Shown here in pieces: positions 3,101 to 34,706 of a DNA stretch of 36,381 bases. The notes beneath the pieces are model-generated. The model did no database searches and had not been told where the DNA came from. It was given only the letters and a program-made list of their open reading frames with translations. Origin of the DNA: an uncultured Bacteroides sp. (GTDB lineage: Bacteria > Bacteroidota > Bacteroidia > Bacteroidales > SM23-62). The translations under genes and the position numbers were made by a program. The stretch is from the NCBI GenBank assembly GCA_964642325.1, contig CAZXOJ010000004.1:1-36381 (forward strand), in the 5' to 3' direction. How positions within the stretch are numbered: the first letter of the stretch is position 1; the number at the start of each line of letters is the position of its first letter.

Positions 3101-3841
3101 ATGAACAGATTGATTATCCTTACTGGTCCCTCCTGCATAGGTAAAAGTACCCTGGACAAAGCCCTTAAACGTTTTTATCCGGGTCTCCGGGAAAACATGC
3201 AAAAACTGGTATTATACAATAATCGTTCTCCCAGACCGGGAGAAATGGAAGGTGTTGATTATTATTTCCGCAAGAAGGAAGAGATTGAGGCATTCCGGCT
3301 CGATGCAAATTATATCGTAATGGGCGTGAGAGGTGATCTGCAGGCCCTCAACCTGAAGGAGCTGTCTGGCGTGCTTAAAAAGAACAATGTGTTTTTCGAG
3401 GGGAATCCCTACGTAGCCGAGATCCTCACTACCCATCCACAGCTAAAGGACTATCCTAAACTGAGTGTGTTTTTATCCCCCCTATCAGAAGAGGAAATAA
3501 GGTACTTTAAACATCCTCAGAGGAATGTCAGGCTGCCGGATTTTATCACGGAGATCATGCGGCGGAAGCAGCTTCGCAGGAAGACCAGGCAAAAAGTGGA
3601 ACTATCGATGCCTGACCTGGACGATATTGAGATAAGGGCATCGAGTGCCTACCGTGAAATGAAAATGGCCTGGCAATTTGATCATATCATTCCAAACCAT
3701 GATGGAGAGGACAGCGATAATTGGGAAGGATTTTATTACCCTGTAGGTGATGCCAGGAAAGCCATGCTCGCCTTTGTTGCACTTCTTCAGGGCGGCGAAG
3801 CCGAAGGAGTTGAGAAATGGGAAAAAGAAATTCTAAAATAG
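3101..3841 (+). CDS. Guanylate kinase-like P-loop nucleoside-monophosphate kinase (divergent paralogue)
   Basis: P-loop GPSCIGKST and GMP-site-like NRSPRPGEMEGVDYYF (compare TTRxPRxGExxGxDYxF). The ORF track begins at a TTG at 3047. I prefer the ATG at 3101, which sits immediately before the P-loop. Confidence 0.7.
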   Translation: MNRLIILTGPSCIGKSTLDKALKRFYPGLRENMQKLVLYNNRSPRPGEMEGVDYYFRKKEEIEAFRLDANYIVMGVRGDLQALNLKELSGVLKKNNVFFEGNPYVAEILTTHPQLKDYPKLSVFLSPLSEEEIRYFKHPQRNVRLPDFITEIMRRKQLRRKTRQKVELSMPDLDDIEIRASSAYREMKMAWQFDHIIPNHDGEDSDNWEGFYYPVGDARKAMLAFVALLQGGEAEGVEKWEKEILK

Positions 3842-3853
3842 TTCAACCACAAT

Positions 3854-4651
3854 ATGGATCGAAAAAAATTCCTACTAATCATTACAAGCACTTTACTCCT
3901 CATTTTTACTATCTCAGCACAAGCCCAGGACATGGATGTTTATCAAAAAAAGCTGTTCCTGAATAAAGGGGATACCCTGCCCTACCGCATCATGTATCCA
4001 CCTGATTTTGATGAGTCCGGCAAGTATCCCCTATTACTATTCCTTCACGGGGCAGGTGAGAGGGGAAATGATAATGAAAAACAGCTTGTTCATGGAGCAA
4101 GCTTCTTTGCAGATCCGTCAAACAGGAAGGATCATCCTGCAGTAGTCGTCTTTCCGCAATGTCCGGAGGATGACTGGTGGGCCAGGGTGGATGACTCTGT
4201 AGATCCTGATGGAAATCGGGTATTTACCTTCTACAGCAAGGGTACTCCAAAACCGGCCATGCGTCTTGTACTCGATCTGCTTGATGAGCTGGTAAACGAA
4301 TCATACATTGATGAGGACAGGGTATACCTGGGGGGGCTTTCCATGGGAGGTATGGGCACTTTCGACCTGCTGAGCCTGAGGCCCAAAACATTTGCTGCCG
4401 CCTTTCCCATTTGTGGAGGTGGCAATCCTAAAACTGCCAGGAAGATATCCAGGGTTACATCTTTCTGGATCTTTCACGGAGCAGATGATAAAGTAGTCAA
4501 CCCGCAATACTCAACAGGAATGGCAGAGGCAATAAAGAAACACAAAGGGAAAGTAAAGCTCACCATTTATCCAGGAACCGACCATAACAGTTGGGATAAT
4601 GCTTTTGCCGAACCTGAACTTCTCCCCTGGGTTTTTTCAAACCGAAGGTAA
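3854..4651 (+). CDS. Secreted alpha/beta-hydrolase esterase (phospholipase/carboxylesterase-type)
   Basis: Signal peptide, oxyanion region LLLFLHGAGERG, nucleophile elbow GLSMGG, then HGADD and a GTDHNSW His. Together these give a Ser-Asp-His triad layout. Confidence 0.8.
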   Translation: MDRKKFLLIITSTLLLIFTISAQAQDMDVYQKKLFLNKGDTLPYRIMYPPDFDESGKYPLLLFLHGAGERGNDNEKQLVHGASFFADPSNRKDHPAVVVFPQCPEDDWWARVDDSVDPDGNRVFTFYSKGTPKPAMRLVLDLLDELVNESYIDEDRVYLGGLSMGGMGTFDLLSLRPKTFAAAFPICGGGNPKTARKISRVTSFWIFHGADDKVVNPQYSTGMAEAIKKHKGKVKLTIYPGTDHNSWDNAFAEPELLPWVFSNRR

Positions 4652-5959
4652 TTTCCAGGGAGCCCGGTATTTCGCCTTCACCATATCATTGGCCTTTTCA
4701 TCATCTTTGAAATTACCTTTCTCTGCATCCCAATACAGTTTCTTCCCGGTTTTTAAGGCAATGTTACCCAGGTGCGCAATCCTGGCAATATGGCCGCCAA
4801 TTTCAATGCTGGCATTGGGTGTTTCCCTTGATCTGATACATTCCAAGAAATTTTGTGCGTGTAGGTTAAGTCCACTCGCTTCACCTTTCTTTGTCAGAGG
4901 GATTGCTTCCATCAAAGGTTTCCCCTGGGATACTTCAGGAATTACCTCCCATCCCTGTCGGTCTACAACCAGGGTTCCATTCTCTCCCAGGAAGGCTACA
5001 CCGTGCCCCCGGCCATAAGGTCCTCCCGAAATGCCTATGGTGGATTCCCAGACCAGAGCAAAATCATCGAAGTCATAATTGGCAAACTGCGTATCCGGGG
5101 TTTCGCGTGCATCTTCCGGAAAAGCATATTTCCCTCCTGTGGACATGACAGCGTTCGGCACGTACTGGTTCATTCCGTACAAGGCATAATCCAACAGGTG
5201 CACCCCCCAATCTGTCATTAGTCCCCCGGCATAATCCCAGAACCATCTGAAGTTAAAATGAAAACGATGCTCGTTAAAAGGATGCGCTGGCGCAGGTCCC
5301 AGCCAGAAATCATAATCCACTCCTTCCGGTACAGGCCCGTCCGGCACAGCCGGAAGTTCACCCTTCCATCCTATATAGGCCCAGGCCTTGACAGTACGTA
5401 TCTTTCCAAGGCTGCCTCCCTGTACATAATCAACAACTTTCTTCCAGTGTGGATCACTGCGCTGCCATTGCCCTACCTGAACAACCCTGTCGTATTTATC
5501 GGCCGCCTTGATCATAATATCACATTCCTGGATTGAATTGGCAAGGGGTTTTTCCACATATACATCCTTACCCGTCTCGCAGGCTTCGATCATTGGCAGG
5601 CAATGCCAATGGTCAGGCGTACCTATGATCACCGCATCAATATCCTTCCTGTCGAGTAATTTCCTGTAATCTCCATACAGATCCGGTTTCTTTCCCTGGA
5701 TATCGTTAGTTTCAGCAGCCCTTTTTTCAAGTACATTGCTATCTACATCACAAAGGGCAGCACATTCCACTCCTTCCTGCTGGAGGAAAGACCTAAGGTC
5801 AGACATACCCATACCATTTATACCAATGGCGCCTATGACCACTTTATCATTGGCGCCAAAGATCCTCCCAGTTGCATTTGCCGTACCTGGCAGTAAAGGT
5901 ATAATAGTGGCACCGGCCACTGCGGCCGTGGAACTTTTGATGAATTTTCTACGTTGCAT
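4637..5959 (-). CDS. TAT-exported Gfo/Idh/MocA family NAD(P)-dependent oxidoreductase (paralogue 1)
   Basis: Twin-arginine leader MQRRKFIKSSTAAVAGA...ANA, Rossmann segment VIGAIGINGMG, and the EKP motif in DVYVEKPLA. Its 3' end overlaps the convergent esterase gene by 15 nt. Confidence 0.9.
   Translation of the reverse strand: MQRRKFIKSSTAAVAGATIIPLLPGTANATGRIFGANDKVVIGAIGINGMGMSDLRSFLQQEGVECAALCDVDSNVLEKRAAETNDIQGKKPDLYGDYRKLLDRKDIDAVIIGTPDHWHCLPMIEACETGKDVYVEKPLANSIQECDIMIKAADKYDRVVQVGQWQRSDPHWKKVVDYVQGGSLGKIRTVKAWAYIGWKGELPAVPDGPVPEGVDYDFWLGPAPAHPFNEHRFHFNFRWFWDYAGGLMTDWGVHLLDYALYGMNQYVPNAVMSTGGKYAFPEDARETPDTQFANYDFDDFALVWESTIGISGGPYGRGHGVAFLGENGTLVVDRQGWEVIPEVSQGKPLMEAIPLTKKGEASGLNLHAQNFLECIRSRETPNASIEIGGHIARIAHLGNIALKTGKKLYWDAEKGNFKDDEKANDMVKAKYRAPWKLPSV
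4652..4774. repeat. Near-identical 123-nt tract shared by the tandem Gfo/Idh/MocA paralogues (copy 1, 3' end of the gene)
   Basis: By manual alignment it matches 5983..6105 at 121 of 123 positions. Flanking paralogous sequence is visibly more diverged. Confidence 0.85.
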
Positions 5960-31603: not shown

Positions 31604-31695
31604 AATTTGAAATTTTGCCGTAATTATACTAATTAAATTTTTGATAATAAGGAGAGAATAACATTTATTAAAGAAATGATTTATCTTTACGATTA

Positions 31696-32484
31696 ATGGC
31701 TATGGATTCGAAAAATATTCGGGAGGTGATGCAACAGTTTGATCCGGTTTCCCTCGGGGAAATGGATGCTGTTAAACTGATGAACCGCACTGACACCAAA
31801 TTTGTATTCCATACCTCCAAACTGGCAGATCTTCTCAGGCTATCAATGGAACAGTATCAGGTACTTCAGATAGGGGAGAACCGAGACTTCATGTACAATT
31901 CCCTTTACTATGATACAGCAGGACTGGACCTGTATCTGGACCACCACAACGGAAAGAGGCCCAGGTTCAAGGTCAGGTTCAGGGAATACCTGGAAACAGG
32001 GACGGTATTCCTGGAGGTCAAACGAAAAACCAATAAGAACCGAACTCGTAAATCCAGGATTCAGGTGGAGGAGATTGAAATGGAACTATCCGGAAAATCC
32101 ATTCAGTATATTGAAAAAGTGGCTCCCCTTAAGGTAGCATTCCTCAAGCCGGCAGCATGGACCATTTTTCGCCGGATCACACTGGTTGGGAAAAACAGTC
32201 CCGAACGAATCACCATAGACTACGAACTATCGTTCCGGCAGGGAGATCAGGAAAAACACCTCCCCTTCTATACCATTTGTGAAGTCAAACGGGATAGCTT
32301 GTCGGGCCATTCTGCATTTATCAAAACCCTGAGAGGATTGTCCATTTTTCCCGGGAATAGCAGCAAATATTGTCTTGGAACTGTCCTGCTGAATGAAGGT
32401 ATCAAGAACAATCGCTTTAAAGGCACCCTATTAAAAATAAAAAAACTCGAAAATGTTAACAGATCTTATCCTGCTGCAGGCTGA
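31696..32484 (+). CDS. VTC-domain protein (triphosphate-tunnel, polyphosphate-polymerase-like)
   Basis: Alternating charged beta-strand motifs typical of the VTC/CYTH tunnel: [28 protein letters not shown] and ICEVKRD. No TM segment. Confidence 0.8.
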
Positions 32485-33142
32485 GCAGCTTCCTCCAGAT
32501 TTATTTGATACGAAAGCATTATTGAACTTAGTGGTTCGCTTTTCATTTAATTTGCTGGTCGTTAGTATCATTGTAAGGGGCTTATATTACACCATTACCC
32601 GCAAAAAGAATTACATGTTTTCTTTCATGCTGATAGGTGTCGTTGTTTTCCTGGTCTGCTTCCTGATGAATAAGCTAGGGATAGGCATGGCATTTGCCTT
32701 GGGACTTTTCGCCATATTCGGGATCATCCGTTACCGCACCAATCCTATCCCCATCAAGGAGATGACCTACCTTTTTGTGATCATTGGTGTATCTGTTATC
32801 AATGGTCTCACCACAAAGAATGTCACTTATTTTGAACTGGTTTTTGCCAACATCATGATCATCCTCGTAGTCTATATCCTTGAGCGGGTATGGTTGATGA
32901 AAAATGAATCAAAGAAAGTGATTGACTATGAAAAAATTGATCTGATACGGCCGGATAAAAGGGCCGAACTTGTGGAAGATCTTAAGCAACGAACAGGATT
33001 GCCGATCAACCGTGTGGAAATCGGTCGGATCAATTTCCTGCGCGACACTGTCAGGCTGCTCATCTATTACCAGGAAGATCGGAGCAATAATATTGTCGAT
33101 GATGTTGAGGTAGGCACCTATGAAGACGGCAGGATGGATTAG
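32453..33142 (+). CDS. DUF4956-like integral membrane protein
   Basis: 4-5 TM helices including GLFAIFGIIRYRTNPIPIKEMTY (DUF4956-like core), then a soluble tail of about 80 aa. The start overlaps the VTC gene by 32 nt. Confidence 0.7.
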   Translation: MLTDLILLQAEQLPPDLFDTKALLNLVVRFSFNLLVVSIIVRGLYYTITRKKNYMFSFMLIGVVVFLVCFLMNKLGIGMAFALGLFAIFGIIRYRTNPIPIKEMTYLFVIIGVSVINGLTTKNVTYFELVFANIMIILVVYILERVWLMKNESKKVIDYEKIDLIRPDKRAELVEDLKQRTGLPINRVEIGRINFLRDTVRLLIYYQEDRSNNIVDDVEVGTYEDGRMD

Positions 33143-33149
33143 CCTGGCA

Positions 33150-34706
33150 CTATTCCACCTGCCAGACAGCATCCAGCAGGGTGCCATCCACCCATTTCAC
33201 AACAGCCACAACTTTATCGGTAAACCCGGGCTTATCCGGTATCCCGCAGATTTTTTCGGCCTCCTCCTTCAATTCTTCCAGGCTTCGGAGAGGCAGGTCT
33301 GAACCTTTCACTTTTTCAAGCAGGTCTTTCCTCAGTGGATTGATGGCTATGCCCCGCTCGGTGACGACGACATCTATCAGTTCACCAGGACCGCAGAGGG
33401 TGGTGACCTCATCACGGATTACAGGGATCCTGTCCCTGAACAAAGGTACAGGAAGGATCACTGTTTTGCTGAAGAGGCAATTCTGCCAACCGCCTATCCC
33501 GTGCAGCAATACCCCATCAGAATGGGTAACCACATTGGCGTTGAAACTGGTATCTATCTCCGTGGCACCGAGGACGACCACGTCCACCATGCCCGCAAAA
33601 TTCCCCTTGCCATGGTAATTGTAACTGGTTAAAGGGCTGGTCCATATATGTTGTGGGTTCTCCCTCATGGAACGCACACCATCCAGGTCAAAGGTCTGCC
33701 CGTCAAGGATGTATTCCACAAGCCCTTCTTCAAGCATGGATACCAGGTAACGGTTACTTCCCCCGCGTGCAAACCTTGCCTTTATCCCTTTTTCCAGCAT
33801 GATCTTTTTGAAGTATTCCCCTACAGCCAGGGAGGTCCCACCTGCCCCACTCTGGAAGGAAAATCCATCCTTAATGATACCGGTCACATCGCAAAACCTG
33901 GCTGTCAGCTCTGCCAGGTAGAGCCTGTCGGGACTCCTGGTGATCCTGGTTGTCCCGGAAATGATTTTCTCAGGATCACCGATATGTTCCATTTCCAGTG
34001 TAAAATCCACATGGTTTCCCTGGATCTGCCAGGGTATGCAAGGAAACTCTACCATATTGTCCGTGGCAACAATGACTTTTTCGGCATACTGGGAATCTGC
34101 CAGGGCAAAACCCAGTAAACCACTGGCCGAAGATCCTTCAAGTCCATTTGCATTCCCAAAGGGATCAGCACATCCGGCCCCGATCACGGCAATATCGATA
34201 TGTATTTCTCCATCCTGAATGGCCTGGTACCTTCCCCCGTGTGAGCGCAGCACTCCCTGTCCCTTCATTTTCCCATCTGAGGTAAATCGTCCCAATGGCC
34301 CATTCATGCTCCCTTCGATATGGTGAATGGTCCCGTCCTCCAGGTATGGTATCAAATGCTGATGGCAAGGAAAAGAAGCCGAAGGGAACCAGACCAGGTC
34401 CTTTACTCCTAATTCATGCGCAGTATCAAAAACCTGGTTCGCCAGCAAGTCGCCATCCCTGAAATGATGATGCGTGGAAATGGTCATCCCATCCTTTAAT
34501 CCGCATTTCTTTAAGGCATCTTTTAATGAAGCTGCCCTTTTATCCCCCCCTGAGGGAAAATTGTTACTGGAACTTATCAGGGGACCATATTTTCTGCCTT
34601 CCGGTATAAATTTTCCAACTCCCTGGTATGGGACCTGCGCTGATCCGTTTACCTCTTTTGGGACCTCTCTGCCAGCTGCATTGATAACTGTTTCTTGCTT
34701 ACTCAT
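33150..34706 (-). CDS. citF: Citrate lyase alpha subunit (citrate CoA-transferase)
   Basis: Colinear with my recollection of E. coli CitF: ISTHHHFRDGD, SHGGR, FGNANG, SFQSGAGGTSLAV, LGATEIDTSFNANV, and the C-terminal FTDKVVAVVKWVDGTLLDAVWQV. Confidence 0.9.
   Translation of the reverse strand: MSKQETVINAAGREVPKEVNGSAQVPYQGVGKFIPEGRKYGPLISSSNNFPSGGDKRAASLKDALKKCGLKDGMTISTHHHFRDGDLLANQVFDTAHELGVKDLVWFPSASFPCHQHLIPYLEDGTIHHIEGSMNGPLGRFTSDGKMKGQGVLRSHGGRYQAIQDGEIHIDIAVIGAGCADPFGNANGLEGSSASGLLGFALADSQYAEKVIVATDNMVEFPCIPWQIQGNHVDFTLEMEHIGDPEKIISGTTRITRSPDRLYLAELTARFCDVTGIIKDGFSFQSGAGGTSLAVGEYFKKIMLEKGIKARFARGGSNRYLVSMLEEGLVEYILDGQTFDLDGVRSMRENPQHIWTSPLTSYNYHGKGNFAGMVDVVVLGATEIDTSFNANVVTHSDGVLLHGIGGWQNCLFSKTVILPVPLFRDRIPVIRDEVTTLCGPGELIDVVVTERGIAINPLRKDLLEKVKGSDLPLRSLEELKEEAEKICGIPDKPGFTDKVVAVVKWVDGTLLDAVWQVE

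Follow-up and report, generated by a model that had tools for sequence, protein, structure and literature searches.

Known systems and the locus under study

The closest described counterparts of the gene pair examined here are the subunits of the eukaryotic VTC complex (yeast Vtc4/Vtc3/Vtc1; PDB 3G3Q/3G3R, 7YTJ, 8I6V), and reviews present VTC as the eukaryotic polyphosphate (polyP) polymerase and PPK as the prokaryotic one (including PMC10657179). The pair lies at positions 31,696 to 33,142 of a stretch of 36,381 nucleotides of DNA from an uncultured Bacteroides sp. (contig CAZXOJ010000004.1, forward strand), hereafter the window, and consists of a gene for a VTC-domain protein of 262 amino acids (aa) that overlaps a gene for a 229-aa DUF4956 membrane protein. 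The eukaryotic complex and the window pair alike combine a soluble tunnel enzyme with a membrane component, and the Pfam VTC domain, the tunnel fold and the basic exit are common to the enzymes of both. The window enzyme differs in lacking SPX and a fused DUF202 transmembrane domain, its components are encoded by two genes, and its partner, DUF4956, is unrelated to Vtc1/DUF202. Relative to Vtc4, Y359 is replaced by Phe and T198 by an acidic residue, and a bacterial N-terminal extension of ~29 residues is added. Finally, the activity of the window pair, unlike that of the eukaryotic complex, is predicted from sequence.

Other systems share either the fold, the proposed product or the gene arrangement. 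The hydrolytic TTM/CYTH enzymes (YgiF, AtTTM3, Sulfolobus TTM, class IV adenylate cyclases) have in common with the window protein the eight-stranded tunnel fold, the site-1 metal Glu, the triphosphate-binding Arg and Lys residues and one acidic residue of the ExExK motif. The window protein departs from them in bearing RxDxK rather than ExExK, in having basic residues at two of the three mapped positions of the acidic patch and in giving no CYTH match; moreover, these hydrolases have no dedicated membrane partner. PPK1 and PPK2 make the product that is proposed for the window pair, polyP from ATP, by an unrelated fold and mechanism. In Gram-positive bacteria, cotH, 'poly-phosphate polymerase' ('PPP'), DUF4956 and DUF4832 genes are accessory genes beside pel operons (Whitfield et al., bioRxiv 10.1101/768473), and the two families that adjoin in the window thus also adjoin in these cotH-VTC-DUF4956(-DUF4832) loci. 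The window differs in that CotH, a Pel locus and DUF4832 are absent and the host is a Gram-negative member of the Bacteroidales, and the papers on the pel-side genes, unlike the present study, proposed no translocation role. In Streptococcus intermedius, SIR_1594-1592 include a protein with a Vtc4-like AlphaFold2 model and catalytic residues, adjoining a protein with four transmembrane segments and an ACT domain (bioRxiv 10.1101/2024.04.20.589940); the same gene types occur in NELoc-2 of C. perfringens, and BT3498-3499 of B. thetaiotaomicron (DUF4956, DUF2490) are listed in an iron-stimulon table. None of these published mentions of VTC or DUF4956 genes includes an experiment on the proteins.

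We propose that the window pair is a membrane-coupled VTC-type polyP polymerase that possibly exports its product, a reading to which we give a probability of about 0.4 and in which we infer the activity, the physical contact and the translocation from the evidence below.

The VTC-domain protein and its kinship with Vtc4

The 262-aa protein belongs to the tunnel enzymes of the Vtc4 type; its set of polymerase residues is almost complete, and its exit is basic. It matches Pfam VTC (PF09359; E 1.9e-26, 93.5 bits against a cut-off of 23) over model positions 1-233 of 235, and this is its sole significant Pfam domain, with neither SPX nor a C-terminal DUF202 transmembrane domain detected. No CYTH match appears at E up to 1, and NCBIfam has no model for this protein or for its DUF4956 partner. 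The absence of any hydrophobic segment and a net charge of +14 indicate that the protein is soluble and cytoplasmic. The AlphaFold2 model, calculated from a 24-sequence alignment (A1), is of good quality (pLDDT 88.8, pTM 0.87) and shows alternating beta-strands with flanking helices. When it is compared with the PDB by Foldseek, the top match is 3g3r_A (Vtc4 with AppNHp-Mn2+; E 1.6e-13, TM-score ~0.62, 20% identity), and the top 13 matches are all tunnel domains of yeast Vtc4, Vtc3 or Vtc2. They are followed by E. coli YgiF (1.9e-9) and other CYTH/TTM hydrolases and cyclases, the E-values of the hydrolases being 4 to 8 orders of magnitude weaker than that of Vtc4. Searches of PDB sequences with the single sequence or a narrow profile gave only marginal matches to Vtc4 and Vtc2 (E 0.012 and 5.9e-4), and a search of the same sequences with a C-terminal fragment gave nothing relevant.

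Members of this large family are annotated 'polyphosphate polymerase domain-containing protein' but are uncharacterised, and the window locus is typical of them. An exhaustive HMMER search with a profile of the VTC protein, run on 1.84 billion representatives, returned 8,691 clusters (defined at 50% identity) with an E-value of 1e-3 or better, of which 2,315 reached 1e-30 or better. No fusion of VTC with DUF4956 was present among the top 150 VTC representatives in a non-exhaustive search.

Active-site residues were mapped by hhalign of alignment A1 to the Vtc4 tunnel domain (206 columns, E 7.7e-6, probability 84%), with a result that is consistent with partial phmmer alignments and with motif spacing. 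The Vtc4 reference was recovered from a frameshifted Logan contig (L081) and is ~98% identical to the S. cerevisiae protein over the fragment queried; its numbering reproduces K200, R264, R266, K281, Y359, R361, R373, E426, S457 and K458. Adding Vtc4 to the family alignment by MAFFT --add was rejected in favor of hhalign, since the C-terminal half was misaligned and R264/R266 were shifted. On the contig that provided the reference (SRR31481546, 1778-3941), the Saccharomyces VTC4 gene is broken up into three gene calls by what appear to be assembly frameshifts, which explain why only short Vtc4 fragments came out of the homologue search with a Vtc4 fragment.

Nine Vtc4 residues coordinate the Mn2+-triphosphate, and their mutation lowers cellular polyP (Liu et al., bioRxiv 10.1101/2023.01.27.525886). 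The window protein has seven of them unchanged, one in conservative exchange (R264 to K92) and one altered (Y359 to F158), as detailed in Table 1. Conservation was counted in 151 sequences, namely the top 150 representatives and the window protein itself, with 34-94% identity to the latter (median 39%). R31, K35, K92, R94, K109, K119, R121, R160, E196, K198 and K224 are each found in all 151 and S223 in 150, while R90 (150/151), R96 and Y98 of the RFKVRFREY strand are further invariant or near-invariant residues. K458, the counterpart of K224, sets active Vtc4 apart from the inactive Vtc2 and Vtc3, which have Ile or Leu at this position (bioRxiv 10.1101/2023.01.27.525886). The motifs on which a sequence-only reading of this DNA had based its assignment, RTDTKF (31-36), RFKVRFREY (90-98), FLEVKRK (105-111) and ICEVKRD (194-200), are all present in the translation, and the conservation of the tunnel Lys, Arg and Glu residues survives the profile alignment to Vtc4.

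The exit of the tunnel likewise resembles that of the polymerase. In hydrolytic TTMs, four Glu residues form a second metal site, where Vtc4 has basic residues that guide the chain to the exit (PMC4641920). Three positions of this patch could be mapped (Vtc4 R196/T198/K428), and R31 and K198 are basic as in Vtc4, with D33 acidic. Additional basic exit residues are provided by R171 (Vtc4 R373) and by K119 and R121 (Vtc4 K294/R296). Thus, in place of the ExExK motif and four-Glu patch that mark the hydrolytic TTM/CYTH enzymes, the protein has RxDxK, a Lys at position 198 and the equivalent of R373. Taken together, these residues make polymerase activity of the VTC protein probable.

Residues 1-29 (31696-31782), ahead of the Pfam domain, form a conserved extension specific to the bacterial proteins (F15, L20, E22-M-D24, V26, L28-M-N30). 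The aligned part of Vtc4 has no equivalent of it, and it might be where DUF4956 docks.

Table 1. Coordinates and residue equivalences of features in and around the VTC-DUF4956 gene pair (positions in the window; residue numbers are those of the respective protein).
Feature	Position	Strand	Basis or remark
VTC-domain gene, 262 aa, ATG start	31696..32484	+	ORF (open reading frame) call and Pfam
DUF4956 membrane-protein gene, 229 aa, ATG start	32453..33142	+	ORF call and Pfam
Two-gene overlap, 32 nt, candidate for translational coupling	32453..32484	+	ORF coordinates
AT-rich divergent intergenic region, 92 nt, between rubredoxin and VTC genes	31604..31695		Presumed promoter region, from position only
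VTC strand beta-1 motif R31-T-D33-T-K35	31786..31800	+	R31 = Vtc4 R196; D33 at T198
VTC RFKVRFREY strand (residues 90-98)	31963..31989	+	hhalign, conservation
VTC E107-V-K109	32014..32022	+	E107 = Vtc4 E279; 151/151
VTC F158-R-R160	32167..32175	+	hhalign
VTC E196-V-K198	32281..32289	+	K198 = Vtc4 K428, Glu in hydrolytic TTMs
VTC S223-K224, in conserved SKY motif	32362..32367	+	hhalign
Vtc4 K200 = K35			hhalign
Vtc4 R264 = K92			hhalign
Vtc4 R266 = R94			hhalign
Vtc4 K281 = K109			hhalign
Vtc4 Y359 = F158			hhalign
Vtc4 R361 = R160			hhalign
Vtc4 E426 (Mn2+ ligand) = E196			hhalign
Vtc4 S457 = S223			hhalign
Vtc4 K458 (catalytic lysine) = K224			hhalign
DUF4956 signature G84-LFAIFGII-R93-Y-R95-T-NPIPIKE-M104-TYLF108	32702..32776	+	Invariant in 24 close homologues
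DUF4956 C-terminal soluble domain, residues 152-207, possibly ACT-like	32906..33073	+	AlphaFold2, weak Foldseek
citF, citrate lyase alpha	33150-34706	-	Pfam PF04223
Citrate lyase fused acyl-carrier (gamma, PF06857) and beta (HpcH_HpaI), 421 aa	34699-35964	-	Pfam

The DUF4956 membrane partner

The 229-aa protein matches Pfam DUF4956 (PF16316; E 2.4e-52, 177.5 bits against a cut-off of 30.6) over the full model (1-169 of 169), and with it both family assignments of the sequence-only reading are borne out by strong profile hidden Markov model (HMM) matches. In its AlphaFold2 model, which is of low confidence, five helices are predicted (20-148), ahead of a beta-alpha-beta-beta domain (152-207) and a tail that is acidic and disordered. 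The signature of the family runs from the last part of helix 3 through a basic loop on the cytoplasmic side into the first part of helix 4. Across 73 DUF4956 partners of VTC genes, G84LFA, F89, R93YRT96 and M104TYLF108 are invariant, as are R180-T-G182 and D198 in the soluble domain. Loops 45-53 (L1) and 93-102 (L3) carry ~3 Lys or Arg each, those of L3 including R93-Y-R95, and the N-terminal tail is acidic. This distribution of charges fits an N-out/C-in topology, in which both basic loops and the C-terminal domain would be cytoplasmic. In Foldseek, the C-terminal domain gave repeated matches to ACT domains over ~56-60 columns that are weak and non-significant, and an ACT domain was assigned to the Streptococcus homologue of this protein (bioRxiv 10.1101/2024.04.20.589940).

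The tail (residues 209-229; 33077-33139) is acidic and disordered, with 8 Asp or Glu in 21 residues. In the yeast complex, an acidic loop of Vtc3 binds to the basic exit of the Vtc4 tunnel, and the tail is reminiscent of this loop. However, the tail is variable and missing from many homologues, and the idea that it is a regulatory element of the whole family was rejected for this reason.

The two genes form a conserved unit

A genome scan with one genome per GTDB species yielded at least 595 confirmed VTC loci, 80 of which were analysed. The DUF4956 gene lies directly 3' of the VTC gene on the same strand in 73 of the 80 and on the other strand within 1.5 kb in two, and the contig ends in three. 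With contig-edge loci left out, 75 of the 77 informative loci have the two genes next to each other, a near-exceptionless co-occurrence in line with what the sequence-only reading expected of related genomes. L043 and L053 are the only loci with room for DUF4956 where it is missing; the neighbours of their VTC genes are a CotH-like gene and a cellulose-synthase-like GT2 gene with a response regulator (L053). In L053 (5356-8765), the VTC gene lies downstream of the GT2 and response regulator genes, an arrangement that parallels the Gram-positive Pel association.

Spacing was measured at 72 loci from estimated start codons: the genes overlap in 50 and are separated by a gap of <=30 nt in 15 more, or 65 of 72 together. 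Overlaps of 32, 26 and 11 nt are seen in independently called genes. Conversely, reverse look-up from three DUF4956 proteins found an overlapping VTC gene directly upstream in five of five places, and these look-ups also showed that the synteny of the lineage is kept, with a CitMHS transporter, dehydrogenase, dipeptidase, rubredoxin, the pair and citrate lyase.

Pairs from other phyla were found on plasmids and secondary replicons. On plasmid pSR1 of Aminobacter sp. SR38 (Alphaproteobacteria; L082, 4090-8709), the order is reversed, with DUF4956 followed by VTC, and the genes overlap. In Deinococcus the order is CotH-VTC-DUF4956. Adjacency that survives the permutation of gene order across phyla is strong evidence of a functional unit, and we hold it highly probable that the VTC and DUF4956 proteins act as one.

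Two further observations concern the distribution of the pair. The Aminobacter genes are preceded by an extracytoplasmic function (ECF) sigma/anti-sigma pair and an S8 peptidase gene, and the gene after them encodes an 'esterase-like activity of phytase' protein, another phosphate- and envelope-flavoured context. Moreover, pairs ~40% identical to those of Bacteroidota occur on contigs L079, L066, L077 and L041/L072, which are assigned to metagenome-assembled genomes of Candidatus Methanoperedens, Akkermansia, Arenicella and Anaerolineae; either the pairs were transferred horizontally or the contigs were mis-binned.

Accessory genes around the pair encode envelope proteins

When the genes that neighbour the pair at the 80 loci are clustered, four accessory families recur, and each of them is extracytoplasmic. 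They are a DUF2490 protein that has a signal peptide and is presumably located in the outer membrane (40 loci), a small lipoprotein of ~140 aa (37 loci), a secreted repeat protein of ~160 aa (29 loci), and a CotH kinase that carries a lamin-tail domain as well as a C-terminal sorting domain of the type IX secretion system (15 loci). The usual order is CotH, lipoprotein, repeat protein, VTC, DUF4956, DUF2490, and such a larger cluster of envelope genes surrounds the pair at roughly half of the Bacteroidota loci. Examples are L005 (1775-2909), L009, L011 (CotH at 3533-5824), L014, L022 and L023. An accessory set that is restricted to the envelope and includes DUF2490 points to an outward-directed product.

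HMMs for CotH, DUF2490, the lipoprotein and the secreted repeat protein matched none of the ORFs of the 36-kb window, and in the closest relatives of the window locus the pair is likewise without accessory families nearby. CotH is the frequent companion that the sequence-only reading had named, and it is absent here as that reading had noted. The view of the pair as self-contained holds for the lineage of the window, but not for the roughly half of other Bacteroidota loci that belong to envelope-gene clusters.

Local organization of the locus

Both ORFs have the lengths and coordinates first reported for them, with the second start 32 nt inside the first gene. The N-terminus of the DUF4956 protein, MxTDLxLLQA, is kept among homologues in the alignment, which supports the upstream start within the overlap. 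Upstream of the pair, sigma-70-type sites are no commoner in 31604..31695 than in shuffled sequences, and a scan for Bacteroidota-type -33/-7 promoters (TTTG...TAnnTTTG) found no match. Downstream, a scan for intrinsic terminators found none for the DUF4956 gene and none for the convergent citF.

The flanks are as first described, with rubredoxin (PF00301) divergent and citrate lyase convergent. Beyond rubredoxin lie an M20 dipeptidase gene and a gene of the isocitrate/isopropylmalate-dehydrogenase family; on the other side, the gene for the citrate lyase alpha subunit CitF (PF04223) is followed by a fused gene for the acyl-carrier and beta subunits. The stop codons of the convergent DUF4956 gene and citF are 7 nt apart (33142-33150). 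The fused gamma-beta gene overlaps citF by 8 nt, and the same fusion exists in relatives L084 and L087.

A model for the pair and its alternatives

In the mechanism that we favor, the two gene products would form one machine at the inner membrane. ATP-Mn2+ would be bound in the basic beta-barrel tunnel of the cytoplasmic 262-aa enzyme, with the metal on E196 and the triphosphate on K35, K92, R94, K109, R160, S223 and K224, and the gamma-phosphate would be transferred onto a growing polyP chain that would leave along the basic path of R31, K119, R121, R171 and K198. The DUF4956 protein, presumably made in step from the overlapping frame, would hold the enzyme at the membrane, its five helices being arranged such that two invariant-arginine loops and the C-terminal domain face the cytoplasm. 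An oligomer of DUF4956 would most likely take over the chain and move it into the membrane or through it, and in many relatives the product could then meet the outer-membrane DUF2490 protein, the lipoprotein and the secreted CotH kinase. Coupled translocation or export is put forward tentatively, at somewhat less than even odds. The sequence-only reading had also pictured a machine that couples synthesis to translocation; the families, the residues and the pairing on which this picture was built stand, whereas the channel role finds no support and the polymerase is argued from residues.

Several observations weigh against a polymerase, and they could be accommodated by a tunnel enzyme that carries out membrane-tethered triphosphate cleavage or phosphoryl or pyrophosphoryl transfer. 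Such an enzyme might, for instance, be a tripolyphosphatase, might hydrolyse NTPs, or might be a transferase whose lipid or glycan acceptor is handled by DUF4956. Tyr359 of active Vtc4 is a Phe in the window protein and in 108 of the 151 sequences (Tyr in 42, Cys in one), and the Y359F exchange in yeast Vtc4 lowers polyP (bioRxiv 10.1101/2023.01.27.525886). D33 (31792-31794; Asp in 141 and Glu in 10 of 151) aligns with the second Glu of ExExK and with T198 of Vtc4, and this invariant acidic position makes the bacterial family intermediate between Vtc4 and hydrolytic TTMs at that one site; moreover, E170 is conserved in 145 of 151. Near-identical TTM tunnel centres are known to serve very different activities, and AtTTM3 has a Vtc4-like tunnel centre without polymerase activity (PMC4641920). 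Structural neighbours of the window protein include YgiF and other hydrolases, and the family has links to exopolysaccharides, through Pel loci and the cellulose-synthase-like GT2 of L053. In agreement with the sequence-only reading, the literature searched contains no experimental function for a bacterial VTC-domain or DUF4956 protein. Nevertheless, with D33 the only acidic residue at the three mapped positions, the four-Glu patch of the hydrolases is not formed, and Asp at the Glu positions of this patch impairs hydrolases (PMC4641920). The K458 equivalent is invariant, although the corresponding lysine is dispensable in the hydrolase AtTTM3 (PMC4641920), the Pfam match is to VTC with none to CYTH, and Vtc4 is ahead of every hydrolase by more than four orders of magnitude in Foldseek E-value. 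We therefore regard an enzyme that does not polymerize as unlikely.

The other adverse points bear on the membrane partner and on where the product goes. The AlphaFold2 model of DUF4956 is of low confidence (pLDDT 63, pTM 0.41), its Foldseek comparison with solved structures gave nothing significant (best E 0.19), and a DUF4956 profile found no related entry among PDB sequences. DUF4956 was also considered as a homologue of the VTC channel domain and rejected, hhalign with the transmembrane domain of Vtc4 (DUF202) giving a probability of 0.4%. Being unrelated to DUF202, it is no diverged Vtc1, and its channel role, if any, would be analogous; given the low-confidence model and the uninformative fold and profile searches, we make no claim of a pore. 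To this are added the absence of the envelope accessory genes from the window and the guess of the S. intermedius preprint that polyP stays in the cytoplasm (bioRxiv 10.1101/2024.04.20.589940). These points would suit a true polyP polymerase for which DUF4956 is only an anchor or an ACT-like allosteric regulator, polyP then being a cytoplasmic, PPK-independent store. ACT domains are usually ligand sensors, and the soluble C-terminal domain of DUF4956 with its weak ACT-like matches would fit such a role; the evidence from catalytic residues is the same as for an exporting polymerase, and the lineage of the window has the pair alone amid housekeeping genes. A cytoplasmic store makes it hard to explain, however, that the recurrent neighbours elsewhere are exclusively envelope or secreted proteins, and five helices with the most invariant motif in or between them are more than an anchor needs. 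Furthermore, polyP made outside the vacuole is toxic in yeast (PMC10657179). We judge a purely cytoplasmic role to be quite unlikely. That the two genes are mere neighbours with no functional link, as the lack of a common domain and the unrelated flanking genes in the window might suggest, is effectively refuted by their adjacency in 75 of 77 loci, the inverted pair of Alphaproteobacteria and that of Deinococcota, the kept overlap and the reverse look-ups, and is improbable in the extreme.

A broader extension of the exporting-polymerase model is more speculative, and we consider it unlikely to hold as a whole. The pair could represent a third bacterial route to polyP, independent of PPK1 and PPK2, in which a Vtc4-type polymerase is docked on a chain-threading DUF4956 oligomer and the chain is handed onward via DUF2490 in many lineages, giving surface or extracellular polyP. 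The exported polymer could serve, for example, as a polyanion or as a phosphoryl donor for secreted CotH kinases in the absence of extracellular ATP. The VTC-DUF4956 machine would then be an analogue of eukaryotic VTC with an unrelated membrane partner.

Significance

The association of VTC and DUF4956 genes was already in print. The present analysis argues at the level of residues that the family is competent for polymerization, puts numbers on a pairing that is obligatory across phyla, finds DUF4956 to be no homologue of Vtc1, and describes an accessory gene set confined to the envelope and including DUF2490. To our knowledge, there is no accepted machinery for placing bacterial polyP outside the cytoplasm. 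Here, a very widespread module has kept the Vtc4 catalytic set, is tied to a membrane protein and has accessory genes that all relate to the envelope. Provided that it is active, the module would be a further polyP synthase, new to bacteria, would provide a function for DUF4956, DUF2490 and non-sporulation CotH kinases, and would bear on the origin of the eukaryotic VTC complex.

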